Virus record (IMG/VR): IMGVR_UViG_3300048762_000476
Direction: 5' to 3' (one strand)
Length of the DNA: 64,000 bases
Source of the DNA: an uncultured virus (IMG/VR IMGVR_UViG_3300048762_000476)
Taxonomy: Duplodnaviria > Heunggongvirae > Uroviricota > Caudoviricetes
Program-made: the position numbers and the translations under genes
Notes under the pieces: model-generated
What the model was told of the DNA's origin: nothing
Seen by the model: only the letters and a program-made list of their open reading frames with translations
The model's database searches: none
Shown: positions 3,307-19,994 of the stretch, piece by piece
Position numbering within the stretch: position 1 is the stretch's first letter
How the letters are laid out: each line of letters starts with the position of its first letter

Positions 3307-3448
3307 AGCGCCACCAGCTTGCTTTACCGCCGCCACCCGCATATGTCCCGGGGCCGTCGGCGAGCGACCGCGAGGAGTGCGCTCAGGAAGCTGGCGCGAG
3401 CCGGCTCACTTGCCTTCTGAAGGGACAACGCCGCGTTCGCGGTTCCGG

Positions 3449-3586
3449 TCAGCGCGCGAGCGCGCGCATCGCCGCCGGGCTTCCGCGACGACGGTTCTGG
3501 CCTCCTGAGCGGGGAGATTGCTGACCCTGTACCCGCAATACTCCCCGCCGAGGCGACATTTCGGTCAATGCTAATCTGGCTTTCAT
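3449..3586 (-). CDS. Possible small basic protein (45 aa, MKARLALTEMS...)
   Basis: Purine-rich RBS AAAGGAAAGAAACG before ATG; no recognisable family; overlaps a hairpin at about 3509-3549. Confidence 0.25.
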   Translation of the reverse strand: MKARLALTEMSPRRGVLRVQGQQSPRSGGQNRRRGSPAAMRALAR

Positions 3587-3745
3587 CGTTTCTTTCCTTT
3601 GCGCTGAGCTTTGATTGAGGTCACGACCGCGGCAACAAGCAAATGGCTTGTCCCTTGCATGCCTAGCCGCCGTGTATGACAGGGGCCTAAGCGTGCTTAC
3701 AAGTAGCAATCGGACCTGTCTGAGTTATTGACCTGGTGCTTAGCG

Positions 3746-3782
3746 TCGGGTTGGGGGAATCGGGGTGAATCCCCCAACCCGA
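3746..3782 (-). terminator. Stem-loop, likely terminator downstream of 3815-4552
   Basis: Perfect 13-bp inverted repeat TCGGGTTGGGGGA...TCCCCCAACCCGA about 30 nt past the stop codon. Confidence 0.6.
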
Positions 3783-3814
3783 GCTTCCGCATTCCGGCGT
3801 CTTAATCGCCTCGC

Positions 3815-4552
3815 CTAGTAGGCGCCGGGGCCGGTCTGGCGCTCGACGGTTTCCAGCGTCGCTTCCCGGCCTTCTTCTTCCTGGGTGTAGAGGTTGTAAG
3901 GGCCGTATTTCACCCCGGATTCTTCGAGGAATCGCTGTTCCTGCTGGCCCGCAACGACACCGAAGGTGATTTCCTCGCCTTTGTTGGTGTTTTCAACGTG
4001 GCCGATCACGCTGCCTTCCAGCACGATCGGTTCCGTACCGCAGGTAAAGGTCGCGATCGGACCGCCGAAGTGCGCAAGACGCACCCCGATTTCTTTTTCG
4101 CCCGGGAGATAGACGAGTTCGGTCCCGAGCGTTTCTGTTTGGATGGTGCCCGATGCGACGTTTCCGCACAAGTCCGTTTTTTTGCCGCCGCTACCGGCGC
4201 ATCTCGTGAATGTGAGCGTCTCTTCGCCGTACTGAGAGCTGGTGATCGTACCCGCCGCGCTGTCTTTTTTGCAGACGATCGTCTGGACGACTTCGTCAAC
4301 GGCGTTCTTGATCGTGATCGTGCTCGCTTTGCTTTTCGAGGTGTATGTGGTGCCTGGAGCCACCGCTTCGCGTTCGTACTTGCCTTTGCCGGGTTCGCTT
4401 TTGGTGGTACAGCCTTTTTCGTAGTTGCCGCCAGTTTGCCTGACGCAATTCTTGTATTCCGGTGGCGCGGCACTGGCGCTCGCCGCTGCGACCGCCATAA
4501 ACGCCATGATGGCCACGATCGGCAAGATAGCCGTGTATCGCTTCTCAAACAT
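3815..4552 (-). CDS. Small secreted Cys-containing beta-rich protein, copy B (245 aa)
   Basis: Start reassigned to MFEKRY (RBS GGAAGGA); Sec signal ending ASA|APPEY; similar to 15672-16352. Confidence 0.82.
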   Translation of the reverse strand: MFEKRYTAILPIVAIMAFMAVAAASASAAPPEYKNCVRQTGGNYEKGCTTKSEPGKGKYEREAVAPGTTYTSKSKASTITIKNAVDEVVQTIVCKKDSAAGTITSSQYGEETLTFTRCAGSGGKKTDLCGNVASGTIQTETLGTELVYLPGEKEIGVRLAHFGGPIATFTCGTEPIVLEGSVIGHVENTNKGEEITFGVVAGQQEQRFLEESGVKYGPYNLYTQEEEGREATLETVERQTGPGAY

Positions 4553-4565
4553 CGTGATTCCTTCC

Positions 4566-4620
4566 GTCGTATTGATGGATAGGGCCTCGGAGTGCTCGTC
4601 TTTGCGAGAGGACACACCCG
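4566..4620 (-). promoter_or_regulatory. Conserved structured 5' leader, copy B
   Basis: Aligns with 16369-16423; identical 16-nt core at 4597-4612; directly upstream of the RBS. Confidence 0.6.
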
Positions 4621-4994
4621 TCGACCGCATGTACCTATGTCTGCTCCCTGGTCTGGCACGCAGGCGGGCCACCGTGCGGTCAAGCTCGGGACCCTGGAGG
4701 GGAACCGGATCCGCGTGCTGCGGGCGGTCTGCCATGGTCTTTCAGTTCAGCTCGTCTAAGCGCAGCCCTCCGTTCGATCGTTTCTTAGAGGCCCCGAGCG
4801 GCAAAGGCCACGCTGCATGCCCCAGCGATCGGGACAACCAGCACAAATGAAAGCACAGCCGGCCGGATTGTGTCGTGTCACGCGAATCGCTTAGAACCGT
4901 GTGGCAGGCAGACGCGCCCGGCCTCTTGGAGAACCCACGTCGAGGAGCATGTTGTGGCCGGAGACGTAGCGGCGGACCACGTGACCGTCTCCGA

Positions 4995-7523
4995 TCACCT
5001 TTTCGTTTTGCGTTTCGGCTTCGCCTGAGGACCGTACTGCTTTCTTGCCGTGGCTTCGCATCTCTCACGCTTCGACTTGGACTTATCTCTCCTACAAAGC
5101 TTCAACGCTTTCGAGAGATCCTCAGCTTTGGTCAAAGGCTTGGGTTTCGCCTTGGCGGATTCCGTGGGAAACACGAGCGGGCCGGCGGGAAGGTTTCCCA
5201 ACGATGGCGCTCCAGTGCTTCCTGGACCAAGAACTTGCGGACTGGCCCCCACGGCCGTTTTGCACGCTTCGCCCGTGCATTCTGGAGTTACGGCCGGCGC
5301 TGGGAATCCGCCCCCTAGCCGAGCGTCGAATAGAGAGGTCTGTGTGCTAGTGGCCCGCGAAACATATTGTGTGGGGTTCACTACGAAGACGTCTTCACCC
5401 GAAGCGACGGTCCCTCGAAATACCGGTTCTGGCGCTTCTCGTCCCGCTTCCACGAGGTGACGGAACCCGTTCGCGACAAGGCTAGTGTTGCCACTTTCCG
5501 GCAGCGTCCTCCAGTGATACTCATACGCATCTTCCTGCCCTGTCGCTGCCTGTGGCGCGAGCTGGTCGGAGCTTGAGAAAAACACCTCGGTTCCGCTGTC
5601 GGATATCGCCAAGCCCTTGACCAGGCCGAGCGGCGAGACTTGCCCTTCGAATTCCGGCGCGACGATGTGTGCGGCGTTCACCGAAGTGTTACCGTCATTG
5701 TCGAAGCGTTCACTCGGGGCACATGTTGCCAGCGAAACGGGGCATTGCCCGCTCGATACACGTATGAGCGTCTGCGTCGTTGCGTCATACTCAAAGATCT
5801 GTGCCACGCTGCTGGTGTCGTCGGAGGTGAGGTCCGCCGTACTCTGGAATACAAGGAATTCGCCGTCGGGCGTGGCCTGCACGGGCCTGTCGTCGTTTCT
5901 CGCCCAGTCCGCAGCATCAGACGGCGATAGACTTGCCACGAACGTAAGCGCGCCTGACGGGTTCGCCGTATCGCGTTGGTAGACGTAGAGATTGTCCGCG
6001 CCCAGGGCGGGTGACTCGCCTCCCCCATTTTTGCCGGTGAGCACGCCCCTGGCGACAAAATATACGTGTGAACCGTCCTCCGATACTCGGGCGACACCTT
6101 GCACTTCAGCCGCCTGCCCCGGGTTCGGATCGCGGGATACCTGGATGACTGCCGCGACCTTGGCGGCGGTGCCCGTCCCTTCAATTTCCTCCTCGTAGAG
6201 GTCCGTCGCAGTGTCCATGTCGCTGTTGACAAGCGGCTGATTCGTCAGAAAGAAAAGCTTCGAGCCATCTTCAGAGGCGCCCTGGAATTCGCCCGCGCTA
6301 CGTTTGTGGCCGTTTTCTTCGTTCTCGTCTTCACGACACGTCCCACTGCATTCGCGGCCCGGGGTCAATAGCGTGGGCTCCGAGATCGCAAGTGTGCGTT
6401 CGCCATTCTCGCGCACGTATAGTTCGTTCACTTCCGGGGCACGTACCACAGACGTACACGTGGCACCGGCTTCGTCGTGACTGAATACAGTAAAAGCAAC
6501 GGTTGCGCCCGAGGTCGAGACGGCGTTGTACTTGTCTCCAGTCGACGAACCCGCGAAGGTCCCTCCGCCGACGTCGTCACCACAATTGCCGATCAAGTGC
6601 GCGTCAGTGTCCGACGTCAACGTGCCTTCGTTGCTCACCCCGATTAGCTTGGGTTCGATCTGGTCCGTCCCATTGTACTCGTAGATGGAAGGCGCTCCCC
6701 GAACCACGGTTGTGTCGCCTGGCCAAAGATAGCTCTGCCGTTCCTGATTGGTGTTGAGGCGGAACACGATGTGCGAAAGATTCGCCGACGCCCCGACGTA
6801 CGGGGTGGAACCGCCGCCGATTGTCCCGTTTTCGAGGCCGGTTTCGCCGACAAAGAGCTCGCCCGACGTGCCGTTCGCGGGTCCTTGCGTTAGGGCGGGC
6901 GAGACAACTGGCCCAACTTCAACAAAGCAGCCGCCGCCGCTCGCAACGCCATCAGCAGGGCACGCGCCATTGGCGGCCGCTGATTCGCGAAGATAGAAAG
7001 AGCCCGCGTGGATCGATTGGCTTGATTCTCTGAGCTCCCACACCGTCTTACTGAAGTCACGACTCACGTCTGCGATACCGCCGGCTGGGAACTGACTTGC
7101 TGATGGCGCAAGCGCGCTTGGTTCCCATCCCTCCGCGTCGCGAGTGAACTGGTACGGCGCGCCAGGAAGACCGAGCGAGTTGGCGGAGCCTACGAACGTG
7201 CCCGAGGTGGATGCGACGACGTTTGATTCGCCATAGGCAGCGAAGCCGAGACTAGGAACCACGTCACCCTCAGTGTACGGCGGCGTGACGAGCTCGTAAG
7301 CGCGGCACTCAGGCAGTTCTATGGAGAATGGCAGGCCCGTGTTGGGGTTAAGCTTGCTTTCTAGGCGTACCTGTTCGTTGGGACACGGTGCGCCTTCCGA
7401 CGCCAGCGCGGGCGTGGCCGGAGCTAGCGCAAGCGCGACGAGCGTCAGCAGCAGGGAAAGGAGGTGGCGAGATCGCGGGACGGGACGCCCGCGAACGTCG
7501 GTGGGGTTGCCTGGACTTTTCAT
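4995..7523 (-). CDS. Secreted TolB/WD40-like beta-propeller protein with basic two-Cys C-terminal tail (842 aa)
   Basis: Signal peptide, LPECRAYELVTP, repeated S.DG..V.F blades (SEDGSKLFF, SEDGSHVYF, TPDGEFLVF, SDSGTEVFF), tail KPLTKAEDLSKALKLC...CEATARKQYG. Confidence 0.85.
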   Translation of the reverse strand: MKSPGNPTDVRGRPVPRSRHLLSLLLTLVALALAPATPALASEGAPCPNEQVRLESKLNPNTGLPFSIELPECRAYELVTPPYTEGDVVPSLGFAAYGESNVVASTSGTFVGSANSLGLPGAPYQFTRDAEGWEPSALAPSASQFPAGGIADVSRDFSKTVWELRESSQSIHAGSFYLRESAAANGACPADGVASGGGCFVEVGPVVSPALTQGPANGTSGELFVGETGLENGTIGGGSTPYVGASANLSHIVFRLNTNQERQSYLWPGDTTVVRGAPSIYEYNGTDQIEPKLIGVSNEGTLTSDTDAHLIGNCGDDVGGGTFAGSSTGDKYNAVSTSGATVAFTVFSHDEAGATCTSVVRAPEVNELYVRENGERTLAISEPTLLTPGRECSGTCREDENEENGHKRSAGEFQGASEDGSKLFFLTNQPLVNSDMDTATDLYEEEIEGTGTAAKVAAVIQVSRDPNPGQAAEVQGVARVSEDGSHVYFVARGVLTGKNGGGESPALGADNLYVYQRDTANPSGALTFVASLSPSDAADWARNDDRPVQATPDGEFLVFQSTADLTSDDTSSVAQIFEYDATTQTLIRVSSGQCPVSLATCAPSERFDNDGNTSVNAAHIVAPEFEGQVSPLGLVKGLAISDSGTEVFFSSSDQLAPQAATGQEDAYEYHWRTLPESGNTSLVANGFRHLVEAGREAPEPVFRGTVASGEDVFVVNPTQYVSRATSTQTSLFDARLGGGFPAPAVTPECTGEACKTAVGASPQVLGPGSTGAPSLGNLPAGPLVFPTESAKAKPKPLTKAEDLSKALKLCRRDKSKSKRERCEATARKQYGPQAKPKRKTKR

Positions 7524-7536
7524 AATCCCGTTCCTC

Positions 7537-10500
7537 CTAGAGCTTCACGGCTGTCGTCTTGGATGCCGCCTGCCTGCCTGCCGTCAGGCGAACCGTCAAC
7601 GGCACCTTCGTGCGTTTACGGGCCTTCGCCCGCCCACTCCTGGTCAAAAACACCCGGACAGTTTGCGTACCCGCCTTCACGCTCCGCGTCGTGGTTTTCA
7701 GGCCCGCGCCGCTGATCCTGACGCGCCCAGCAGCCGATGCCTGCAGCGTTACCACCAGGATGGAGCCCTCGATTTTCGTCTTGGCCACCGACACAGTGAG
7801 AGGACAGCCGCTCGGGGCGATCCTCGTGTTCTGGGTGCGCTGCGCGCCGTTCTGGCCGACGATGATCGTCGGCATCACGAGGTTCACGCGGCATGTGCTC
7901 TCGTTTGCGCTCGCGGGGAAGTTCGTGCCAAGGATGGAGTACGGGCCCTCGGGAAGCGACGTTTCGAAGCTCGAGATCGGGGCGTCGGGCACCGTTTCAA
8001 ATCGCGAGTAAGTAACGCCGTCCTTGATCTGCGTCTTGCCGTCGAGGATGATCGTGACGCCCTGGCCTTGGAGGACGTACTCGACGTCGGGGAAGGCCGC
8101 GCCGCCGTGCGAGACGAGGATCGCAGGCCCTGTCAGGGGAACATCGAGTGCAGGCGTGACGGCCTTTGCGGTCCCGATCACCGAACCGTGGGGACAGCCG
8201 GCGGGGTCCGCGTTGAACTGCGCTTCCAGGCACGCCTTGTTGAGCGTGGAGTCGCGGGTCGGGAGCGCCATGGGGATCTCGAGCTCGACCTTCTGGATGT
8301 TCGCTTCGCCGGGCTTCTGTGCGATCTTGACGTCGAGGCTCGCGCCGTACGCTTTGCTGGTGGTCGGGGCCGTCGACGCGGAGAGGCTCGGATCGAACGG
8401 CAGCGCAGCGCAACCGCTCGGGGTGTAGGGGCTCGCAGCGGCGCTCGAGCCGCCGCCGGATCCGCTGATCGTCGCCTGGATCTGCTGCGCCGAGCAGTTG
8501 GTGGCGTTGAACGTGAATTCGGGCCGGTTGACGGCCACGTTCACCGTGCGCAGCCGTGTCGGCACGCCGTCGATGATCTGCGGCAGGGGGCCGCTCGTGA
8601 TCGTCAGCGCCGCGGTCTGCGGGTCGATGTCGATCGCGGCTCGAACGATCACGTTTCCGAGGCTGAACGGGCCCGCGACCGCGGGCACGACGACGCTCAA
8701 GCCGAACGGAGCGCCGTTGTAGGGACCGGTCAGATATACGCGCCCACTGAGGTAGAAGGGGTGTTCGCCGGCCCCCGCGCTCACCGTGGTCGTGCCGATC
8801 TGGCTTGCCGATTCGCAGCTCCCGGCATTGGCCTGCGCTTCGCCGCAAAGGCTGACGTGCGAGAGCATCCCGAGCAGGCCGGGCGGAGTCTTGACCTGGA
8901 TGCCGGTGAGGTCCTGTTCGCGGTCCTGACGGGAAAACGTGACGGTCAGGGGGCTGTAGGCGCCCGCGCTCGCAGTGACGGTTCCGGCGCTGAACGCCGG
9001 CGCAAACGGGAGGCTTGACGGACATGCGCCACCCTGCCCGTTCCAGTCGATCGAGAAGGCCGGGGAGGTTTCGCTGACTTCCTGTCCGCTCCATGCGGAC
9101 AGAATGGATGTAGTCGCGTAGGAGCCGCAGGTCTGGGGGTTGGCCAGCGGCGCACGCGGTCCGCCGTCGAAGTGGAGCTTCAGTTCTTCAAACGGGAGTT
9201 GGGGGTTTTCGTCGAAGCTCGCCGTCAGCCGGCCCGTCGCAGGATCGGCCGCTACCTTCCCCGGCAGCTTGATCACGACGCCTTCGCCGGCCGCTTCGAT
9301 GTAGAGGCCGTACAGTTCGCCGTTCGTGGCGCTCGATTCGGTGCAGGCCGACTGCCCTGCCGCGCCGCATTTCGGCTCGGCGAGGTAGACGTGCCCGAGG
9401 AGAGGGTGCGGCAGTAGGGGTGTCGATACTTCAGCGGTGCCAAGTGTCGAGCCGGCCGGGCAGTGCCCGGCCGCCAAGTGCGCTAGGCCGTCGGCTGCGA
9501 TTTCTTCGCCTTCGCCGGCTTCGTCGGGGTGCAAGGCGGATACCGGCATGTCGATGCCTTCCGGTCCCGTTTCGCGACAGCCCTCGAGACCTTCAGCGGC
9601 CGAGGGAGAAACGGAGACCCCCGCAGGCAGCGTGACCGTCGCGTCGCGTAGGGCCGGGGTCGCGGTTTCCGTAAAGCCCGTTGTCTGGGGAACCCGCAAA
9701 TCGACCGTATAGGCTGAGGGCTCGTCGGCCTGGGTCGTGCCTTCTTCGGACGTCGGACTCGGGGCCATCGCGAGTGTTGGGTTGAACTGCAACAAAGAGC
9801 AACCGGTGAGACTCGGATACGTGATCGATTCAGCGCTCGTCCATTCTTCCGGGTGTTGCCACGAGTTCGCTTCGATTCGCGCCGTCAATGGACCCGATGC
9901 GCAGTCTGCAGGATTCGTAACAAACGCTGTTTCGGGTATATCCGGGCTGGCGACTTCATCGACTTGAGCAGGGTCGCCGAAAAACGTAAGGGACGCGAAG
10001 TGAAGTTCATCTGCTTTGAGCAGCCCAGGCACCGAGACACGTAGCTGGTAGCCGAGCGATGTATGGGCCACATTCGCATAAAGCAGTACCGACTTGCTTA
10101 GTTGTTCGATCCCGAACTCCGCGGGGTACCCCCGCTCAGGTATCATATTGAAAATCGGCGTAGTCGATGCGATAGCGTATCGCGAGCCGACAACTTCGCC
10201 TCCCGCTGCGGCTTCGCCTTCTATCACTACGTAGCCAAGAATGCTGCTTTTTGGGCAGGGAGCGAGGCCTTTGCTGGTGTTCAGATCGCTGAGCGCGCAT
10301 CTCGTGGCGGTTGCCAGCGGATTGCCGATAAGTCCAAGTGGCAGGTCAACAACGATATTCTTCGGACTCGCAACCACCTCATAGGGTTTATCGTTGCTTT
10401 TTTCCAATTCGCGAGGCACTGTATTTGTGTCGTAACTGAACGTCAGCGAATAAGGGTGCCCAGCAGCGGACGAGCTGCCGCCGCCATCTTCATCGGTGGT

Positions 10501-11367
10501 CTGGAGGCTAAAATCGTTGAGCCCGAACGGGGTTGCAGTAGTGGAGTTGACGGTATTGGGCGTTGCGTTGGTAGACGCGTTGGAGCCACTGCCAGCTTCG
10601 GCAGTCGCCATGTTTGTTACGGTCGCCGCCGCACCGGACTTGGGGACGACGCTTATGTCGAGAGCCACTGTTTCAAACGAGGGTATCGATGACACGGTAC
10701 AAGTGAGGGTGGCGACCGCGCAGGAACGGGAATGTTCGCTGCCGCCAGACACGAGGTAGTAAGAGATCGCGGTGGCGACCAAATCCGATGGAAGCGTGTC
10801 ACGAATGTTGACTTCGGTCGCCGTTTGTGGACCGGTGTTCGTTGCCACCACCTTATATCTGTCTAGTGTAGGCATAGCTTTTGTTACTTCGGCCATCACT
10901 GCTGTCTTCGTGGAGTTGCCAGTCAGCGCGGTGTTGTCGCTCCGGAATTCCTGAATCTCCACGCCAGAGAGGCTGCCGTCGAACGTCACCACGTACGGCG
11001 TGGTGTTCGTTTCGCTGCATCCAGTTGCACCGCCGGTCACCGTTACGTTACCGGCGCCGATCTTTTCAAGTGCTTCGAGCGCCGCCTGCACCGTCGCGGC
11101 AGGTGCGTCGCACGCAAGGCTCGTGGTTGTTTCACCGTGGGCGGCCAGCGTAAACGTGCCGCCCGCGGCGTCGACGGTCACGCCGTCCACCTCGTCGACG
11201 TGATCGTTCGAAGAAAAGTTCGTTGGCGTCGCGATGGAAGTTACCGACCATCCCGGTGTCGGCGCTTCGGCCGCCGAGGCCGCAGCGGGCACGGCGAGGG
11301 AAGTGACCAGGAGGACCAGTGCGGCACGGGATGAGCGAGCATGCGTGCGGAGTGCTCGGCGAATCAT
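7537..11367 (-). CDS. Large secreted Cys-patterned repeat protein with DUF11-like N-terminal domain (1276 aa)
   Basis: Signal peptide; YKVVATNTGP..NIRDTLP (DUF11-like); four repeats with P..(G)...C...C..S..G pattern; basic beta-rich C-terminus; ATGA overlap with the upstream gene. Confidence 0.87.
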   Translation of the reverse strand: MIRRALRTHARSSRAALVLLVTSLAVPAAASAAEAPTPGWSVTSIATPTNFSSNDHVDEVDGVTVDAAGGTFTLAAHGETTTSLACDAPAATVQAALEALEKIGAGNVTVTGGATGCSETNTTPYVVTFDGSLSGVEIQEFRSDNTALTGNSTKTAVMAEVTKAMPTLDRYKVVATNTGPQTATEVNIRDTLPSDLVATAISYYLVSGGSEHSRSCAVATLTCTVSSIPSFETVALDISVVPKSGAAATVTNMATAEAGSGSNASTNATPNTVNSTTATPFGLNDFSLQTTDEDGGGSSSAAGHPYSLTFSYDTNTVPRELEKSNDKPYEVVASPKNIVVDLPLGLIGNPLATATRCALSDLNTSKGLAPCPKSSILGYVVIEGEAAAGGEVVGSRYAIASTTPIFNMIPERGYPAEFGIEQLSKSVLLYANVAHTSLGYQLRVSVPGLLKADELHFASLTFFGDPAQVDEVASPDIPETAFVTNPADCASGPLTARIEANSWQHPEEWTSAESITYPSLTGCSLLQFNPTLAMAPSPTSEEGTTQADEPSAYTVDLRVPQTTGFTETATPALRDATVTLPAGVSVSPSAAEGLEGCRETGPEGIDMPVSALHPDEAGEGEEIAADGLAHLAAGHCPAGSTLGTAEVSTPLLPHPLLGHVYLAEPKCGAAGQSACTESSATNGELYGLYIEAAGEGVVIKLPGKVAADPATGRLTASFDENPQLPFEELKLHFDGGPRAPLANPQTCGSYATTSILSAWSGQEVSETSPAFSIDWNGQGGACPSSLPFAPAFSAGTVTASAGAYSPLTVTFSRQDREQDLTGIQVKTPPGLLGMLSHVSLCGEAQANAGSCESASQIGTTTVSAGAGEHPFYLSGRVYLTGPYNGAPFGLSVVVPAVAGPFSLGNVIVRAAIDIDPQTAALTITSGPLPQIIDGVPTRLRTVNVAVNRPEFTFNATNCSAQQIQATISGSGGGSSAAASPYTPSGCAALPFDPSLSASTAPTTSKAYGASLDVKIAQKPGEANIQKVELEIPMALPTRDSTLNKACLEAQFNADPAGCPHGSVIGTAKAVTPALDVPLTGPAILVSHGGAAFPDVEYVLQGQGVTIILDGKTQIKDGVTYSRFETVPDAPISSFETSLPEGPYSILGTNFPASANESTCRVNLVMPTIIVGQNGAQRTQNTRIAPSGCPLTVSVAKTKIEGSILVVTLQASAAGRVRISGAGLKTTTRSVKAGTQTVRVFLTRSGRAKARKRTKVPLTVRLTAGRQAASKTTAVKL

Positions 11368-14300
11368 TTCTTTCCCTTCTTCCTGGGCTTCGGTTTGCCT
11401 GCGTACTTGCTCCGCGCCTGCTTTGCGCAGCTCTCGCGCTTGCTCTTCTTCTTCTCGCTCCTACAGCTCTTCAGCGCTTTCGCGAGCTTCTGCGCCTTGG
11501 TTAGCGGTTTTGCCGGCGTGGGGTGCGTCGCGGGCTTCGGAACCGGCACGGGCGCGAGCACGGGGAGCAGGGCCGCGCTCGCGGGCTGGGAGAGACCGGT
11601 CGAGGTGCTCGGCGCGGTGCCTGGCGCGGGCTGTGCCACCGCCGGCGGTTCCGCTGCGGTAGTGAACGACTGGTGGGCCCCTTCGACCTTGCCCGACGCG
11701 TTTTCGGCCACCAGCCAGTAGGCGTATTCGCTGTCCGGGACGAGGCCCGCGACCCTCTCTGGCGTGATCGCGACCGTTCGGTTGCCGGCGGACACCGCGG
11801 CCGGCGCGACCATCTCGGTGTCCCCGAGGCCGGGGCGTTGGTACTCGAAGTAGTAGCTCGTCGGGTAGCTCGAGCTGGTGCTGTTGCCGGGGTCGATCGT
11901 CGCGCTCAGCAACGCCCCGTTGGCCGTGATTTCGCCGACCTGCTCAGACTCGACGACCGGCGCCGCCGGGCCTGTGGTGAAGGTGCGTGGCGCAGAGGAC
12001 GTCGTGACAGTGGGGTTGCGCGCGCTGAGACGATAGCCGTAGCTCGTGCCTGGTTGGAGGCCCGTCAGCGTGATCTGGACGCCGACGCCGGTGTCGTTGC
12101 TCCCGGTTTCGGCCTGTTCGATCTGTGCCTTGGTGAGCGTCACTTCGGCGGTACGTGCCGTGTATGGCGTGCAGGTGAAGTTGCCGAAGGTGACGTGGCA
12201 CGGCGCATATTCGAGCCAGTAGACCGTTTCGCTCTCGCCAGTCGACTTGAACTCGCCGGGCAGCATCGCGGCTACTGAGGTCACGGCGGTTGCTTCGCCG
12301 ATCGTCAGGAAGGCGAACGTCGGCTGCGTCGTGAAGGTCTTTTCGCTTCCATAGGTGGTTCCCGTGGAGTTGTGCGCGGCGAGCCTGTAGTGGTAGGTCG
12401 TCGCTTCGGTGGAGTTAGCGAATCTCGCGACGCCGCTCACTTCGCGGGATCCCGGGTGCGCTTCTACTTCCGCGCGGCCGATGGTCGCGGGCGTCGTCTT
12501 CGCGTCCGATCCGGTCAGCGTCGCGGCGGCGTATTCGAAGTAGTATTCGGTTTCCTCGTATTCGGGTTTTTGTTCGTTCGGGGTCAGCGAGCCGGCGAGT
12601 GTGGCGCTGGTAGCTGTGACTTCGCTGGCTTCGCCGGTGATGACTGCTGGGACCGACGGCAGCGTCGTGAAGGCTTCTTCTTCGCCTGAGACGAGCTGGC
12701 TGTAGAGCTTGTTCTTGGCGACGAGCTTGTAGTGGTAGGTCGTTCCCCCGCTCAGGCCGGTCAGGGTGGCGGTCACGGTCTTCTTTTCGCCTTCCGCTCC
12801 GGTCACCGTCGCCGTCGCCGTCTTTGTACCGGACGCGGTCGTGGTGCCGTATTCGAAGTAGTATTCGATTTCGGCGCCGTCCGGTTCGATCGAGCCTTCC
12901 ACGGTGGCTTCGGTGATCTTGACTGCCGAGGGCGGCCCGGTTTTGACGCCCTGCACGGCATTGGCGGTCGAAAACGTCTGGTCTGAGCCGTGACCGGGAC
13001 CCTTGGTGTTGGTGCCGGCGATGCGGTAGTGGTAGCTGGTGCCGGGTTCCAGGCCGGTTAGTTCGGCGCTCACGGCCGTGGGTCTCGTGCCTTCGCCGAT
13101 TTCTGTCGCGCTCTGCTTGCACGGTGCGGAATGGCCATAGGAGTCGGCGGTGCCGTATTCGAATTCGCAGACGCTGACCGCGTGGCCTTCGGGGTTGACG
13201 GTGCCGTTGAGGGTCGCGGTCGTCACGCCGATAGCGGTGGCGGTGCCGGTGACCCAGGTCGCGCCTTCGCTTGCGGGCGCGAACACCTCGAGGTTGCCGG
13301 CGGCGGGGTTGGTGACGTAGGCGTCGTGCGTTTCGTCGTTGACGGCGACACCCTCGGAGCCGTTGAATTCTCCGGCGCCGAATTCTTCTACCTTGCTTCC
13401 CGTTGAGCTATAGACAGTGACGTGCGTGCCTTCGTCGACGAGCACGTTCTCCGTCGCGGCTTCGACCGAAACGGCGCCGCCTTTCGCCGCAAGCATTTCT
13501 TCGTGTTGAACTTCGGCTTTGGCGTTGACTTCCAGCTTGGCCACGCCGACAGGTTCTTCGCCAACCGGGACGTAGGCGCCGAGATACACGACACCTGGCG
13601 CGCCCACCGCGATATATGCCGGAGTGTTAATTTCTGTCGGATGAAACTTCCCGACTTCCTGGCCGGCCGGGTCGAACTCGATGACTTCGTCGTAGTAGTT
13701 CGCCACATATACGTTGCCATCGGTGTCGACCGCCACGCCGTTCGGTGCGAATTCTTCTTCAACATGAACGAGCGTTTCCTTTTCGTATTTACCCGTTCCC
13801 GTGTTCAGCTTCAGCTTGACGACCTGGTGTTCGCCGCCCTCTTCGGCGACGTACACGTCGCCGTTTGACGGGTCAAACGATTCGCACGCGGAACCCGTCA
13901 GGCGTGGATTGTGGAAGTAGCACGCGTTATCGACCGCTACTCCCGCCGCTTCGCTCGCCCCGAAGCCTTCAAAGCCTTTGATGTGTTCCGTGACTCCTCC
14001 GGCTGGCGCGCCGCCTTCGGCGCCATAGACGTCCACTTCTTCTTTCGCGCTGTCGGCGACGTAGACGTTCCCCGTTTCCTCATCGACAGCGGCTCCGGTC
14101 GGGAAGCTGAAGCTTTCGCGCGCGCTGAACGGCGCTGATTCAAGGATTCGAGAACGGGGCCCAGACGTGTGGCTTTCGCTGCCGAACGCCTCGAGGTCTT
14201 TGCCCGCGGGGTTGGTGACGTAGGCGTCGTGCATTTCGTCGTTGACGGCGACACCGCGGGATTCTTCGAATTCCGCGGCGCCGAATTCTTCGGTGATTGC

Positions 14301-15353
14301 CCCGGTTGAGCTGTAGACGACGATCCGGGAGGTTTCGTCGACGAGCACGTTGCCTTCAGAGTCGACCGCAACCGCGCGCCCTTCCGGTTCAGCGGGGCCA
14401 CCCGGGCGGGTCGCCAGCATCGCTTCGTGCTGCACCGCGAAGCTACCGTTGACTTCGACCTTCGCGACACCCCCGCCGTAGTTGCCGACGTAGAGCACGC
14501 CGGGTTCGCCGATCGCGAGATAGGCCGGGTGTTCGATCAGCGTCTGCGCGACTTCGCCGACTTTCGCCCCGGCCGGGTCGTAGACCGTGATCGTGCGCGC
14601 TTTGTAGTTGGCGATGTAGACGTCGCCGTGGGAGTCGACCGCGACGCCGTTCGGTTCGATCGGGAGGTCTTCGTGTTCTTCGGTTTCCTGGAGCGGTTCG
14701 ACGAAGGTTTCTTTTTCGTATTCGTGGGTGCTCGTGTTCAGCTTGAGGCGGACGATCGCGTGGCCCGGCGCCTCGGAGACGTACACGTCGCCGTTGGCGG
14801 GGTCCGCCGATTCGCAGGCGCTACCGGACAGCTTCTGCAGGTAGCAGGAGTTGTCGACCGCGACCTCCTCCGGTTCGTTGACGCTCCCGAATTCAAAGCC
14901 CGCGACCGGCGAGACCACGCCGCCGGCCGGGGCGCCGCCTTCGGCGCCCACGACCTCGAGCGTGCCCGCTTCGCTGTCGGCGACGAACACGTTGCCCGTC
15001 GCCTGCTCGACCGCCACGCCCGTCGGATCGTGGAACGCTCCCGCCGGGAAGGCCGATTCGAAGATGCGCGCGCGTCCCGCGGCCGCATCCGCAGAAGCGC
15101 TCGACAGGAGAAGCGCGAGCATCACGAGCACGGCGGAGGCAAACGCCACCACCGGTGGCTTGACGGCGAATGCACGTCGTGTGGCTGCGGCGCTGAGGGA
15201 CACACGTGGATGATACGGCATCGCTGGCGTCGTCCGCCAGTGCGTGTCTATGCAGACTGGGCCGCCTGCGGGAACAGGGTCGCCGCGGTGTGCGCGCGCG
15301 GCCACGCCGAGGTCGGCGCGATGACCGCGATATGAGGTGCTGCTGTGCCGCAT
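11364..15353 (-). CDS. Secreted NHL-repeat / fibronectin type III protein with basic two-Cys C-terminal tail; true start may be 15221 or later
   Basis: Two NHL propeller units (PTGVAV...GNVYVAD, PNGVAVD), five Fn3-like repeats (YYFEYG...GL..GT.YHYRL...FTT), tail KPLTKAQKLAKALKSC...CAKQARSKYAG. Confidence 0.87.
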   Translation of the reverse strand: MRHSSTSYRGHRADLGVAARAHRGDPVPAGGPVCIDTHWRTTPAMPYHPRVSLSAAATRRAFAVKPPVVAFASAVLVMLALLLSSASADAAAGRARIFESAFPAGAFHDPTGVAVEQATGNVFVADSEAGTLEVVGAEGGAPAGGVVSPVAGFEFGSVNEPEEVAVDNSCYLQKLSGSACESADPANGDVYVSEAPGHAIVRLKLNTSTHEYEKETFVEPLQETEEHEDLPIEPNGVAVDSHGDVYIANYKARTITVYDPAGAKVGEVAQTLIEHPAYLAIGEPGVLYVGNYGGGVAKVEVNGSFAVQHEAMLATRPGGPAEPEGRAVAVDSEGNVLVDETSRIVVYSSTGAITEEFGAAEFEESRGVAVNDEMHDAYVTNPAGKDLEAFGSESHTSGPRSRILESAPFSARESFSFPTGAAVDEETGNVYVADSAKEEVDVYGAEGGAPAGGVTEHIKGFEGFGASEAAGVAVDNACYFHNPRLTGSACESFDPSNGDVYVAEEGGEHQVVKLKLNTGTGKYEKETLVHVEEEFAPNGVAVDTDGNVYVANYYDEVIEFDPAGQEVGKFHPTEINTPAYIAVGAPGVVYLGAYVPVGEEPVGVAKLEVNAKAEVQHEEMLAAKGGAVSVEAATENVLVDEGTHVTVYSSTGSKVEEFGAGEFNGSEGVAVNDETHDAYVTNPAAGNLEVFAPASEGATWVTGTATAIGVTTATLNGTVNPEGHAVSVCEFEYGTADSYGHSAPCKQSATEIGEGTRPTAVSAELTGLEPGTSYHYRIAGTNTKGPGHGSDQTFSTANAVQGVKTGPPSAVKITEATVEGSIEPDGAEIEYYFEYGTTTASGTKTATATVTGAEGEKKTVTATLTGLSGGTTYHYKLVAKNKLYSQLVSGEEEAFTTLPSVPAVITGEASEVTATSATLAGSLTPNEQKPEYEETEYYFEYAAATLTGSDAKTTPATIGRAEVEAHPGSREVSGVARFANSTEATTYHYRLAAHNSTGTTYGSEKTFTTQPTFAFLTIGEATAVTSVAAMLPGEFKSTGESETVYWLEYAPCHVTFGNFTCTPYTARTAEVTLTKAQIEQAETGSNDTGVGVQITLTGLQPGTSYGYRLSARNPTVTTSSAPRTFTTGPAAPVVESEQVGEITANGALLSATIDPGNSTSSSYPTSYYFEYQRPGLGDTEMVAPAAVSAGNRTVAITPERVAGLVPDSEYAYWLVAENASGKVEGAHQSFTTAAEPPAVAQPAPGTAPSTSTGLSQPASAALLPVLAPVPVPKPATHPTPAKPLTKAQKLAKALKSCRSEKKKSKRESCAKQARSKYAGKPKPRKKGKK

Positions 15354-15584
15354 CTCCTTTGCCCCTTAACCTGATTCTTCTGATACTTCTAACACGCGGT
15401 GTAACTGGAAGTCGCGGCGTCCCAGGCGTGCGACCGCCGTTTCCTGAGCGGCAGTTGCGGCGGGCCGCGCTATGTGGTCCCAAGAGCACAGAGAATGGAC
15501 GGGAGGCCCGTGGCGATCAGCTCGCGGCGCGGCCTAGTCGCCGCTGATACTCATCCTCCCAGCACTGGAGGCGGGCGAAGCGCC

Positions 15585-15659
15585 GGGGCCGCGGGCGTGT
15601 CCGCGGCCCCTGGCACTTCGTCGGTCCTTCAGATGCCTGTGCCTACCGGCTGCACAGGC
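15585..15659 (-). terminator. Two stem-loops downstream of 15672-16352
   Basis: GGGGCCGCGG/CCGCGGCCCC (15585-15610) and GCCTGTGC/GCACAGGC (15635-15659). Confidence 0.5.
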
Positions 15660-15671
15660 ACCGGTCTCCTG

Positions 15672-16352
15672 CTAGCTGAGGAAGATGCCGGCGCCTTTCG
15701 GGCCTTCATTTTCGATTTCGGCTTCGAATTCAGCAGCGGTCGTACCGAATTTCAGTTCGCCGCCTTTGAATTTCTCGATTTTGCCGCTTTTACCGGTGAA
15801 TTCGCCTTTCACCGTTCCCGTCACCGGGACTTTCCCGGGGCAGCCGGTGCCCGTGAGGTCTACTTCGGTGAAGGGCTCACCCGTCGGGGGCGTGAGTTTG
15901 TTGAAGATAACTCCACCTGTTTCTTCCAGAATGGTGTTCGCTTCGACTTCGATCGGTTCCGCGACCGTGCAGCTCGCGAGGGCCCCAGTGGCTTTGCATT
16001 TCGTGAAGGAGATTTCGTCGAGGTTCCGTCCGACTCCGGCCCGGTTGAAGATGTAGGCCTCATCCGCGACCACGGTGCATTCGATGCCGCTTTCTCCAGC
16101 TTTCAGCACAGCGACGGTTCCCGATTTGTTTTTCGAGGTCGTCACGACTCCGTTGCTGAGGTTACCGACGAGCTCCTTTTCGAAGTTGCTTTTCGCTTTT
16201 TCGGTCGTGCAGCCGATCGTCGTGAATTTCCCGGTTTCTTTCGTGACTTCTTTACAGAGTTCATACTCGGGGGCTGCTGATGCCGCGGCTGTGACGGACG
16301 CAAACGCCACGAGCGCGAGCACCGGCAGGAGTAGTGCGTAGAGCTTCCTCAT
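15672..16352 (-). CDS. Small secreted Cys-containing beta-rich protein, copy A (226 aa)
   Basis: Start MRKLYALL (RBS AAAGGA); signal ending ASA|APEYELC; same Cys pattern as 3815-4552. Confidence 0.82.
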   Translation of the reverse strand: MRKLYALLLPVLALVAFASVTAAASAAPEYELCKEVTKETGKFTTIGCTTEKAKSNFEKELVGNLSNGVVTTSKNKSGTVAVLKAGESGIECTVVADEAYIFNRAGVGRNLDEISFTKCKATGALASCTVAEPIEVEANTILEETGGVIFNKLTPPTGEPFTEVDLTGTGCPGKVPVTGTVKGEFTGKSGKIEKFKGGELKFGTTAAEFEAEIENEGPKGAGIFLS

Positions 16353-16368
16353 TGCTATCATCCTTTGG

Positions 16369-16423
16369 GTCGTATTGCTGGAGAGCCTCGGGGCGCCCGT
16401 CTTTGCGAGAGGAGGCGCTCCGG
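16369..16423 (-). promoter_or_regulatory. Conserved structured 5' leader, copy A
   Basis: Aligns with 4566-4620; identical core at 16398-16413 enclosed by a GC-rich stem. Confidence 0.6.
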
Positions 16424-16884
16424 GGCCTTATCTTGTCGGTTCTCCCCGCTCCCAGCGTCGGCACACGGAAAGGGCTGGTTCGGTCCCTGTTCTCTGCCAG
16501 CGCCATCGCTACGAAGCCGGCGCCGGCTGTGAAGGACCGTGGGAGCTCATTGGTCCGCCCCGGAGGGCAGTGAGCCTGCCAATGACGTTGGTCTTTCTCC
16601 CTGGTTACTCCTCCTCGGTACGGACCTGCTGGATCTTTCGATCCTGGGAGCACGCTGCTGGCCCCCAGCAATCGGACATTGCGGATCAAAGCACACCCGC
16701 CGAGCGTTTTGGGCCGTCTTTGGACACTTGCCTCGATCACCTCTCATGTAGGTGTCGCTGGGAGTTCAGCTCGTCTTGGGGCTTTGTCCCGTAGTCAAGG
16801 GAGATCCACCTACTGGAAGTTCTGAAGATGACGGGCTTTAGGTGTCACAGGTTGTAAAGCAAGATTTAGGTTCGAGGCCGTGGT

Positions 16885-17817
16885 TCAGGCGAGCAGAGCG
16901 GAGCTGAGCCCTTCGAGGACGGCCGCGACGAGCGCATGGTCGCCGGTTGTGTCGAGCTTGGCCGGGTCGCAGTGCAGGAGTGCCTCGCACCAGCGCTCGG
17001 GGGTCGCGCGGCTGCACGCTTGCGGAGGCTCGAGCGCTGGCGTGGTCACGACGGCGATCCGGCCCGCGGCGGCGACAAGGTCGAGGTCCGGTTCGGTGAT
17101 CTGAGAGTCCAGACGCCAGCGGCAGGTCCCATTGACGCTGTGCGGTACGTGGGCCACCGGTGCGAGTAGGTGCATGCGGCCTAGGAGATCGCTGGGGAGG
17201 GCCTCGGGGTTGCCGCGCTGCAGCTCGCAGTGGGCCGCGCGCAAGGCAATGACGGTCATATGCCGGGCATTGTCGCTCAGGACGTAGCGGACCTCTCCGT
17301 TCGTCCCTTCACGGGAGAGGACCCCGTAGCCGGGTAGAGCTTTCAGGCGTCGTAGGAGCACGGAGCGCGTGAGATTAGGCACGCGCACCTGTAGATCGCT
17401 GAAGCGCTGGGGGCCGTCGGCGAGGGCGCGCACGATCGCGCGGGTACGGCGGTCGGAGACAAGCTTGATCGCCCAGAGGCCCGCCACTATGGGCTGCTCG
17501 GCCGGCGTGCACCAAGCTCGCTCGCAGTGCCCGGCGCTGGAGAGGACCGCGAGTAGGCAGTCGCGGCCGAGCTCGGTGAGCGAGTACAACACCCCGGGTC
17601 GTCCATTGCTCGTCGGTGACTCCTCTGCGCTCACGAATCCGTTAGAGGTGAGTGTGCGCAGACGCCGCCGGACCGTCCAGCCCGCGATTCCCTCACGTGG
17701 AGCCTCGACGTCGCTGACGCGCGTCGGACCCTTGCTCAACCGTTGGAGGACGATGAGCGTGCACTCGTCGATCAGGAGATCCAAGGTGGCGTCCCCGAGG
17801 CGGTCTCGATGGCTCAT
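16885..17817 (-). CDS. Tandem HxlR-family winged-helix regulator with possible SCP2-like C-terminus
   Basis: Two HxlR-like units (GPTRVSDV...RRLRTL...YSLTELG; GPQRFSDL...RRLKAL...YVLS). Confidence 0.75.
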   Translation of the reverse strand: MSHRDRLGDATLDLLIDECTLIVLQRLSKGPTRVSDVEAPREGIAGWTVRRRLRTLTSNGFVSAEESPTSNGRPGVLYSLTELGRDCLLAVLSSAGHCERAWCTPAEQPIVAGLWAIKLVSDRRTRAIVRALADGPQRFSDLQVRVPNLTRSVLLRRLKALPGYGVLSREGTNGEVRYVLSDNARHMTVIALRAAHCELQRGNPEALPSDLLGRMHLLAPVAHVPHSVNGTCRWRLDSQITEPDLDLVAAAGRIAVVTTPALEPPQACSRATPERWCEALLHCDPAKLDTTGDHALVAAVLEGLSSALLA

Positions 17818-17925
17818 CTCGCTCTGGCTCCCCAGCCCTTTCCTCGGATACGTGCGCCCGCCTGGCTGCGGACAGAATCTGGTTCCAGAGCATAGGACGA
17901 ATCGACACCGGCGGCAAACGCCGGG

Positions 17926-18677: not shown

Positions 18678-19994
18678 TTAGCCAGCGAGGATCGCCTCGA
18701 TCGCGGCCTCGCTGCCGATGATCGGGGTGAGCGCGAGATAGCTGGCGTCCTCGGCGAGGTCACGGAGCAGGTGGACCCGGCCACGCGCGACGTAGTCGTG
18801 GATCACTGCCCAGACTGCGCCCACGATCGCCTCGGCCAACAACTCGGAGGGACGTTGCTCTTCGGGTATGCGCCTGATGAACACGTTCGCGAAGCGTCGC
18901 AAGAGCTTCGAACGCGGCTCGACCGCTACGGGGCCCACGGCGAAGATCTCGACAAACACCACCTGACCGACAAAGGGATTGGACGCGATGTGATCCAACA
19001 GCGCGGCGATCCCGTCGCGCACTTCCTGCGGCCACTCTGCCCCACGCCGCGCGGCCTTGGCGGCGCACACGAGGGCTTCGACACCGAGCAGATCGAAGGC
19101 TGTCAGAAAGCACTTCTCAACAGCCCGGGAACCGTCGTACATGCTCGCGAACGTCTCTTCGCTGACCTCGGCCACCCGGCTGATGCGGGGGGCGCTCAGC
19201 GCCGAGTAGCCCTCGCTCGCGGCGATCGTCGCGGCCGCGCGAAGGATCCGCAATCCCTCGTCGTTGCCACGCACGGCGGGTGGGCGGGCTCGCCACGCGC
19301 GGGCGGTGAGCGCCGGCGCCGGACGCGACCACGGGCGATAGCTCGATACCCAAGCGGATAGCTCGTCAGCTGTCGCGGAGAGCCGATCGATCCTTCCCTC
19401 GAGCAGGTACACGCGCGCGATCCGCTCGACGCCGCCCGCGATGCCCTTGGCGATCCTCGGCGAGAGCGTCGCACCACCGGAGCGGTTGTTGACGCTTGCT
19501 TCGATCAGCCCCTCGAAGATCGCGCGTCCTTCGCCCATGCGTTGCAGCGCCACGGGGCCCGCACCGAACGCCTCGATGAGCGCGAATCGAGCGGCCTGCG
19601 GCTCACCTGCGGCCTCGATCGCGAACTGCTCGAAGGCCCGGCACAGGCGGCGGTCCGGATCTCGCTCCCCGCGATAGGCCTCGCTGATGCGAGTGACAGC
19701 TCGGTCGACCACGAAGTCATAGGCCTCTAGGAAGCAAATCTCTTTCGGGTTCCGTTGCCCGAAAGCGAACAGGTCGTAGAAGGTTTGGCGCGAGACTCCG
19801 GCGAGCGCGCAAACGGACTTGATCGTCGTCGCCTGATACCCGCGATGCGAGACGATCTCGACCATCGCCCGATAGATTCGGTGGCGCTGATCCTCGGTGA
19901 TCTGCTCTTTGCTCAGCCCACACCAGCGAGGCTGCAGCTTCCGGTACGGCGACGCTGCTCCAACAGCGCTGGACGAGTCTAGGACGCTGCTCAT
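18678..19994 (-). CDS. Double-domain TetR/AcrR family regulator
   Basis: QRHRIYRAMVEIVSHRGYQATTI..VCALAGVSRQTFY; second HTH RILRAAATIAASEGYSALS...VAEVSEETF. Confidence 0.85.
   Translation of the reverse strand: MSSVLDSSSAVGAASPYRKLQPRWCGLSKEQITEDQRHRIYRAMVEIVSHRGYQATTIKSVCALAGVSRQTFYDLFAFGQRNPKEICFLEAYDFVVDRAVTRISEAYRGERDPDRRLCRAFEQFAIEAAGEPQAARFALIEAFGAGPVALQRMGEGRAIFEGLIEASVNNRSGGATLSPRIAKGIAGGVERIARVYLLEGRIDRLSATADELSAWVSSYRPWSRPAPALTARAWRARPPAVRGNDEGLRILRAAATIAASEGYSALSAPRISRVAEVSEETFASMYDGSRAVEKCFLTAFDLLGVEALVCAAKAARRGAEWPQEVRDGIAALLDHIASNPFVGQVVFVEIFAVGPVAVEPRSKLLRRFANVFIRRIPEEQRPSELLAEAIVGAVWAVIHDYVARGRVHLLRDLAEDASYLALTPIIGSEAAIEAILAG

Follow-up and report, generated by a model that had tools for sequence, protein, structure and literature searches.

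An undescribed regulator-linked gene cassette with relatives in uncultured Solirubrobacterales, predicted to display disulfide-bonded binding complexes on the cell surface

The described systems nearest in kind to the locus analysed here are the Gram-positive fibrillar adhesins, such as antigen I/II, PrgB and the Cna-type MSCRAMMs, together with the non-covalently anchored surface proteins. The locus occupies positions 3815-16352 of a 64,000-nucleotide (nt) stretch of DNA, here termed the window, from an uncultured virus of the class Caudoviricetes (IMG/VR record IMGVR_UViG_3300048762_000476), and it encodes three large secreted proteins, the giants L1, L2 and L3, and two small ones, S1 and S2, the latter belonging to a family referred to below as S. 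Like the fibrillar adhesins, the locus has an Ig-like array, in L2, with a variable distal and a conserved proximal part, and the N-terminal domain of L2 is CnaB/DUF11/CLIPPER-like (Z 11-12 in structural alignment with VIA, the exhaustive structure aligner used for the S2 and L2 models). Unlike these adhesins, the cassette contains no LPXTG motif, sortase linkage or known adhesive domain, the model of L2 is compact (predicted template modelling score, pTM, 0.68), and L2 is paired with propeller giants, a barrel protein and a regulator in tens of copies. Sortase-assembled pili (SpaA, BcpA, RrgB) resemble the locus in the fold of the L2 N-terminal domain only (Z 10-11.7) and differ from it in that the cassette has no sorting signal and its small proteins are modelled as barrels, not as pilin folds. 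The likeness to polysaccharide utilization loci is one of logic only, in that tens of diverged cassettes are each under a separate regulator, but no SusC/SusD-type gene, transporter or glycoside hydrolase is conserved, and the organism is a monoderm. The locus lacks the defining features of sortase-assembled pili, S-layer anchors and polysaccharide utilization loci, and a literature search found no paper on this cassette system. The reading favoured here, at a probability of roughly 0.5, is that the locus is one copy of an undescribed family of regulator-linked cassettes that belongs to soil Solirubrobacterales and is predicted to display disulfide-bonded binding complexes on the cell surface.

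The locus consists of five minus-strand open reading frames (ORFs), all co-oriented, between positions 3815 and 16361 of the window, with the transcription order S2, L1, L2, L3, S1, such that the small paralogs flank three translationally coupled giants. The genes are as follows (lengths in amino acids, aa):

15672..16352 (longest ORF to 16361), minus strand: S2, small secreted protein modelled as an 8-stranded beta-barrel, 226 aa from the conserved Met
11364..15353, minus strand: L1, signal peptide, two NHL/SGL propeller modules, about five Fn3-like domains, Pro-rich linker and cationic tail, 1329 aa
7537..11367, minus strand: L2, signal peptide, CnaB/DUF11-like domain with an insert, and an Ig-like array, 1276 aa
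4995..7523, minus strand: L3, signal peptide, PD40-like propeller region (assigned through relatives), Pro/Gly linker and cationic tail, 842 aa
3815..4555 (ORF open to 4735), minus strand: S1, second small protein of the barrel family, 246 aa from MFEKRY

The start of S2 was placed at a Met that is conserved in the family and corresponds to residue 4 of the longest ORF (alignment of 88 S family members). By coordinates, the L1 and L2 genes share 4 nt, and a gap of 13 nt separates L2 from L3. All five proteins carry Sec-type leaders and paired Cys: hydropathy scans detected one hydrophobic stretch per protein, at the N-terminus, and the Cys counts of the mature proteins are even throughout. Neither a C-terminal transmembrane segment nor a terminal LPXTG was detected in any of the five by regular-expression and hydropathy scans, and a single internal LPESG, at residue 674 of L3, is not followed by a transmembrane segment. 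An earlier note, made from the sequence of this locus, had described five co-oriented Sec-signal proteins, three of them large and closely coupled, with no sortase motif or transmembrane anchor; these descriptions are confirmed, and anchoring looks sortase-independent. Regarding sortase itself, no gene for it was detected among the conserved cassette neighbours, with the window scanned to 22 kb; in related genomes a single sortase gene per genome is present, in three of four genomes.

The same set of genes recurs in other genomes. When species-representative genomes were scanned with L2, 14 loci came up, all in Solirubrobacterales or metagenome-assembled genomes (MAGs) and seven of them in one 4.08-Mb chromosome, and all named relatives of the locus are uncultured Solirubrobacterales from environmental metagenomes. 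Five related genomes (G001-G005) and a series of recovered loci (numbered with the prefix L) were compared, and cassette neighbours from 23 sources were clustered by BLAST. The usual cassette order, by tblastn and ORF maps, is a regulator of about 300 aa, at least one S gene, an L1-L3 fusion, an L2-like gene and, in many cases, a small gene of lipoprotein type; the fusion, of 1270-1550 aa, joins L1-like (NHL, Fn3) and L3-like parts in most copies. The variant found in the window encodes L1 and L3 separately, on either side of L2, and in the cassettes L018-L020 the L1 part is absent. Co-occurrence of small and large genes elsewhere, which the earlier note had set beforehand as a test, was observed: among the 23 sources the propeller family is present in 20, the L2 or stalk family in 22, S in 15, the regulator in 14 and a double-HxlR family in four. 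Furthermore, 33 of the 37 L2-like genes listed for G001 have an S match on the same strand 4.2-8.8 kb upstream, in a pairing test that accepted same-strand S matches within 12 kb upstream and had a chance expectation of about 0.08 per gene. Because the layout is conserved, chance adjacency of the five genes is excluded. Only the propeller, stalk, S, regulator, lipoprotein and HxlR families are conserved among the clustered neighbours, and no transporter, hydrolase or catabolic gene is conserved among them in the 23 sources.

The cassettes are amplified to very different degrees in the related genomes. S profile matches number 62 in G001, 43 in G005, nine in G003, five in G002 and none in G004, and the corresponding L2 matches are 65, 48, 49, 31 and six. 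From the matches to the C-terminal tail described below (70 in this genome), G001 (about 4.1 Mb) is estimated, and not counted, to hold about 35 cassettes at about 11 kb each, roughly 9% of the genome. Among genomes sampled more widely, those with the L2 core number 9 of 201 at the level of the class and 44 of 121 at that of the family; 7725 proteins belong to the L2 family at E<=1e-10 among 8000 candidates scored, named as hypothetical or TIGR01451-type proteins.

Some recovered loci depart from the usual form. Seven S-family matches lie in tandem upstream of a single propeller/stalk pair at L021-L022 (G001, about 1819786-1829270). In-frame stops or fragmentation in the cassettes L002, L014, L017 and L020 reflect either decaying copies or MAG assembly errors. 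In G004, the locus L004 encodes an L2-like protein of 1716 aa with four TIG domains, amid arrays of secreted proteins of 300-550 aa, one of which has collagen repeats; L004 has neither S nor a basic Cys tail, and the stalk family is accompanied here by another set of accessory genes.

Regarding the giants, L1 has NHL matches over the Pfam cut-off (PF01436, 72.5 bits, four stretches), an SGL match (68.1 bits) of the SGL/arylesterase type and Fn3-type matches, which agrees with its earlier designation as an NHL/Fn3 protein. An NHL module of about 300 aa is tandemly duplicated in L1 (54% identity, E 1e-84 by direct comparison), although self-BLAST detected no internal repeats in L1, L2 or L3. The four repeats described earlier for L2 were not recovered as such, given this self-BLAST result and a structural model in which about ten sandwich-sized units can be discerned. 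L3 has no Pfam or NCBIfam match of its own, PD40 being absent even at E<=1, and no match to PDB sequences. PD40 does exceed its 20.9-bit cut-off in the L3-like part of three of 11 relatives (L021 26.7, L006 24.2 and L005 21.9 bits) and is found in 23-28% of the members of Atlas clusters resembling L3; the L3 of the window is therefore TolB-like by way of its relatives only.

The sole Pfam match of L2 is DUF11 (PF01345, residues 170-275, 35 bits against a cut-off of 24.6), and its NCBIfam match to TIGR01451 is close to threshold (25.4 bits against 24). The AlphaFold2 (AF2) model of residues 36-1230 is all-beta, with a predicted local distance difference test score (pLDDT) of 82.3 and the pTM given above, and its strand list was read as about ten sandwich-sized units, in line with an array of Ig-like domains. 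Foldseek returned 158 PDB matches at E<=1e-3 for this model, headed by the Ig-like domains of PrgB (E 8.6e-11) and including a thaumarchaeal (Nitrosopumilus) S-layer protein (E about 1e-7), mastigonemes, complement/alpha-2-macroglobulin MG arrays and the C-terminal domains of antigen I/II. The TM-scores of these matches are low (0.07-0.13), so that the common feature is only an array of Ig-like domains. With VIA, the N-terminal domain aligns with CnaB/DUF11/CLIPPER and pilin domains at Z 10-12; residues 1-242 of the model align with the pilin CnaB domains of BcpA, SpaD, EbpB, RrgB and others at Z 10-11.7. These results bear out the expectation that the large proteins have adhesin-like or surface-layer-like folds. 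Pairwise identity among L2 proteins is 0.27-0.41 over residues 36-485 and 0.44-0.75 over residues 486-1185, i.e., the N-terminal part of about 450 residues, far from the C-terminus, is variable and the C-terminal part of about 700 residues is conserved; invariant columns are chiefly Cys, Gly and Pro, among others. The variable part contains an insert, within the CnaB/DUF11-like domain:

10876..11199, minus strand: L2 insert domain, like a repeat of the mycobacteriophage Bxb1 tail-tip protein gp23 and the C-terminus of the Bxb1 capsid protein (phmmer E 4e-15)

The insert aligns with the gp23 repeat at Z 13.1 (VIA), with 32% identity over 104 aligned residues, and about one in five aligned homologs has it (occupancy 0.22); a tblastn search with it against 50,697 phage records gave no match.

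L1 and L3 have a C-terminal segment in common (E 3e-11), which was aligned across 26 giants:

11367..11540, minus strand: cationic two-Cys tail of L1, last 58 aa
4998..5171, minus strand: cationic two-Cys tail of L3, charge +15

The tail has the consensus LTxAQKLAKALKxC...KR..CE..ARK.Y, followed by a polybasic run, and is about 45-58 residues long, with two Cys 10-13 residues apart that are invariant in all 26 giants. A Pro-rich stretch precedes it. The last 50 residues have charges of +15 to +19 against -55 to -97 for the protein bodies (+19 against -97 in L1). No Pfam, NCBIfam or PDB sequence match was found for the tail, and its profile matches (70 in G001, 73 in G005, 14 in G003, six in G002 and none in G004) are nearly all located at the ends of frames of 1150-1600 aa. 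The window copy of L2 has no Cys tail; in most other copies L2, too, ends in a Pro-rich linker and a basic two-Cys tail. From its position, its charge and the Pro-rich linker, the tail may be a non-covalent envelope anchor. Known non-covalent anchors of monoderm bacteria include SLH, CWB2, LysM and GW modules and the basic C-termini of Lactobacillus S-layer proteins, and the tail can be likened to them in being C-terminal, strongly positive and set behind a Pro-rich spacer; it differs from them in its length, its two invariant Cys and the lack of a sequence match to any model.

Acidic bodies combined with non-covalent basic anchors are typical of S-layer proteins, and the cassettes could accordingly encode alternative S-layers or envelope coats, in which acidic giants with basic tails tile the surface and different coats serve, for example, in escape from phages or predators. 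The compactness of the L2 model and its match to the Nitrosopumilus S-layer protein are consistent with such a coat, and the variable N-terminal part of L2 and its phage-virion-type insert would fit exposure to phages. The low TM-scores reduce the S-layer match to that of an Ig-like array, however, no SLH, CWB2 or other S-layer anchor was detected in the five proteins with Pfam and NCBIfam, and known S-layers are made from one gene or a handful of strongly expressed genes, not from about 35 separately regulated cassettes. A coat is thus considered distinctly unlikely.

Regarding the small proteins, S1 and S2 are weak paralogs, with 27% identity over 115 aa (BLASTP, E 8e-4), and have six Cys at matching positions, which are invariant in all 88 aligned family members. 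These six Cys and one Gly are the invariant columns of the alignment, and mean column identity among S paralogs is 20%. None of the 88 members has a Pfam match, and S1 and S2 also have no NCBIfam match. A profile built from S1, S2 and three relatives matched 682 representative clusters at E<=1e-3, of which 122 remain at E<=1e-10, and gave no match to PDB sequences; a tblastn search with S2 against the 50,697 phage records was likewise negative. The AF2 model of S2 (pLDDT 92.7, pTM 0.83) has a short disulfide-bonded N-terminal beta extension followed by a closed 8-stranded up-and-down (meander) barrel, with tight turns at one end and longer loops at the other according to the strand list. The family therefore appears, as far as the model is a guide, to consist of 8-stranded beta-barrels in which six Cys are invariant, and to be new, with no Pfam model, in keeping with the earlier description of two small paralogous, beta-rich Cys proteins. 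The signal peptide of the family (S2 residues 1-30) is at least as conserved as the barrel, at 2.5-2.7 against 1.5-2.0 bits per column, a measure that is inflated by Ala/Leu bias.

Foldseek found no PDB match to the S2 model at E<=1e-3. With VIA, residues of about 70-221 align at Z 10-11.4 with 8-stranded membrane barrels, among which outer-membrane barrels such as OmpA, OmpX, NspA and PagL, and with designed barrels; soluble calycin-type binders, which have the same closed 8-stranded up-and-down barrel (avidins, YceI, BcnA/B and the TbpB and fHbp barrels), align at Z 7.4-9. Unlike these meander barrels, to which it has no sequence relation, S has the N-terminal disulfide-bonded extension and three invariant disulfides. 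Omp85 (PF01103), of the BAM machinery that inserts outer-membrane barrels in diderms, is absent from four of four related genomes, with the control positive in seven diderm genomes, which makes a membrane-barrel role for S unlikely; S is probably a soluble or wall-associated barrel.

Six proteins of G001 and G005 (L023-L028) carry the S domain in other contexts. The whole mature domain stands behind an L1-like Fn3 at the C-terminus of the FG-GAP propeller proteins L026 and L028, and C-terminally behind Fn3 in the S8 subtilases L025 and L027; in a third S8 subtilase, L024, it is C-terminal with no Fn3 detected before it, and in L023 it lies next to a GDSL lipase domain. The basic tail is absent from all six, and by match coordinates their genes are not adjacent to cassettes. 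Since the domain is appended to unrelated secreted enzymes, S behaves as a binding or anchoring module and not as a fibre subunit.

This bears on the function originally proposed for the locus, a sortase-independent filament in which S polymerises as the major subunit and the giants serve as tip, scaffold or anchor. The monocistronic S genes, each with its own leader and hairpin, the tandem grouping of as many as seven of them upstream of a single pair of giants, and the likeness between pilin CnaB domains and the N-terminal domain of L2 (Z about 11) would suit a filament, but a closed barrel with three invariant disulfides, in which no donor-strand or pilin-like feature was seen, would not, and no pilin or TasA-type chain is among the rows listed for S2 by Foldseek or VIA. 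The use of S as a terminal module on subtilases, a lipase and FG-GAP propellers argues in the same direction, and the low column identity among paralogs is unusual for a polymerising subunit, just as tens of diverged copies, each with its own regulator, are unlike a single structural fibre. A role of S as a polymerising major subunit is therefore not supported, and a filament of this kind is regarded as very unlikely.

The barrel fold also raises the possibility of a released or loosely bound scavenging system, with the propellers as enzymes or capture proteins for particular soil substrates, S as a carrier of a small hydrophobic ligand and a TetR-like repressor through which each cassette would be induced by its substrate, a logic akin to that of polysaccharide utilization loci. 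The fold that S has in common with the avidin, YceI and BcnA/B ligand-binding barrels (Z 8-9), the attachment of its domain to hydrolases, the SGL/arylesterase-type matches of L1, the linkage of a TetR-like regulator family to cassettes in 14 of the 23 sources and the tens of diverged copies per genome are all compatible with this. It is nevertheless judged unlikely, given that the conserved cassette genes include no transporter, hydrolase or catabolic gene, that the Pro-rich linker and basic tail are anchor-like, and that no catalytic residues stand out, the invariant columns being Cys and Gly in S and chiefly Cys, Gly and Pro in L2.

Another reading joins the two new modules: S and the basic tail could be a docking pair, with the S barrel as a wall-bound or ligand-bound dock, to which subtilases and lipases would be linked covalently by carrying S behind an Fn3 spacer and which the giants would reach via the disulfide-stapled cationic tail. 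S and the tail are placed alike, behind Fn3, and in a sample of the family all four genomes positive for both S and L2 also have tails, an association that may reflect shared ancestry because the sampled genomes are not independent. Obligatory pairing of S and tail is weakened by three observations: genome G219 has 11 tail matches and no S, genome G285 has an S match with no L2 or tail match, and the L018 and L019 cassettes have S and no basic tails. If true, the docking pair would be a cohesin-dockerin-like, regulator-switched display system that fills about one tenth of the genome in an abundant lineage of soil bacteria, but it is considered quite improbable.

Two kinds of regulator are encoded upstream of the locus and travel with the cassette:

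18678..19994, minus strand: TetR-like regulator, 438 aa (TetR_N E 6.8e-10)
16885..17817, minus strand: double HxlR-type winged-helix regulator, 310 aa (HxlR E 1.1e-18, two stretches)

The TetR-like BLAST cluster has 17 members in its 14 sources, including the gene of about 300 aa just upstream of S in canonical cassettes. Homologs of the double-HxlR protein are present upstream of window-type cassettes in L002, L015 and L020.

Under the favoured reading, a surface-displayed binding complex, the propeller heads on Fn3 stalks and their Ig-like partner would be displayed as an adhesin-like or ligand-capture complex. The giants are very acidic, and the basic tail would hold them non-covalently on anionic polymers of the wall or membrane, with the Pro-rich linker spanning the wall. 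S would be a separately transcribed accessory subunit for binding or docking and not a polymer subunit. The variable distal parts and the divergent S barrels would give each cassette its own ligand, and the adjacent regulator would decide when each cassette is made. Several points weigh against this reading. No known adhesive or anchor domain is present, and binding and anchoring rest on architecture; the pTM of L2 suggests a compact body as opposed to an extended stalk; enzymes, too, can contain SGL/NHL and PD40 propellers; and no transporter or hydrolase in the cassette points to a physiological role. Gene order and content also vary, with L1 absent from three cassettes and fused to L3 in most, and the complex may accordingly be looser than proposed. 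The copy numbers are, as stated, estimates, made from lists of matches that do not themselves amount to copy numbers.

Solirubrobacterales are among the commoner Actinomycetota of soil, and to our knowledge almost nothing is known about their cell surface. By the estimate above, this single uncharacterised family of cassettes appears to take up about a tenth of the DNA in some of their genomes, and the ligands of the cassettes would tell in what way these bacteria adhere to their environment, sense it or draw food from it. Two unnamed modules emerge from the analysis, a putative three-disulfide 8-stranded barrel and a short cationic two-Cys tail, the latter possibly a new non-covalent anchor.

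Regarding the regions around the S genes, the gaps upstream of S1 and S2 are 439 and 523 nt long and have conserved blocks in common (alignment), and hairpins were found 3' of both S genes, as well as 3' of L3:

16353..16884, minus strand: S2 upstream region, with blocks common to the S1 upstream region
4556..4994, minus strand: S1 upstream region, with blocks common to the S2 upstream region
15633..15662, minus strand: hairpin 3' of the S2 stop, terminator-like, 11-bp stem in minimum free energy and centroid folds, no U tract
4959..4993, minus strand: hairpin just 3' of the L3 stop, 8-nt perfect arms 19 nt apart
3746..3783, minus strand: hairpin 3' of the S1 stop, 12-bp G+C-rich stem by reading, recovered in part by folding

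Long upstream regions, a shared leader and separate terminators for the two small genes had been noted before and are seen again here, the terminators as hairpins. The hairpin at 15633..15662 was not listed by the consensus terminator scan, in which terminator-like sites were no commoner than in shuffles. A 15-mer at 16395-16409 and 4594-4608 occurs at these two places only in the window and was not found in the 22 related loci examined. The identical 14-nt string AGACGAGCTGAACT is present in both leaders, at 4755-4770 and 16765-16780 (minus strand), and is placed differently relative to the other common blocks, which suggests rearranged copies of one upstream region. Folds of the S leaders are no better than those of shuffles (z -0.03 for S1 and -1.15 for S2) and no common palindrome of at least 8 nt was detected in them, which gives no evidence of an RNA element or an operator. 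Rfam returned nothing at gathering score over positions 3000-18000, the weak match to PtaRNA1 on the plus strand at 16728-16784 having 23.3 bits against a cut-off of 47 bits (E 0.68), and a sigma-70 scan gave no promoter-like sites.

The lipoprotein-like family among the conserved neighbours consists of a small gene of 228-280 aa located 3' of L2 in five canonical cassettes (BLAST cluster):

L005, 13150-13950: lipoprotein-like gene
L007, 13265-14086: lipoprotein-like gene
L008, 2667-3404: lipoprotein-like gene
L012, 13328-14014: lipoprotein-like gene
L013, 3181-4023: lipoprotein-like gene

No Pfam match was found for the L008 protein, the sole member scanned, and no member of the family was seen in the window.

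As to the surroundings of the locus, G+C content drops to 0.56-0.61 within the cassette, at 3500-7000 and 9500-11000, with flanks at 0.67-0.71, a drop that could stem from amino-acid composition or from a foreign origin. A full-length DnaE-type DNA polymerase III alpha subunit, encoded on the plus strand at 1-3306 of the window, adjoins the cassette. Further along, a run of minus-strand genes at 23527-51790 resembles a mobile or defence island and includes genes for an AAA_16 ATPase, a UvrD helicase, a ParB-helix-turn-helix protein and a C5 DNA methylase, as well as, at 41397-46445, a giant protein of 1682 aa with methyltransferase and helicase-C parts.

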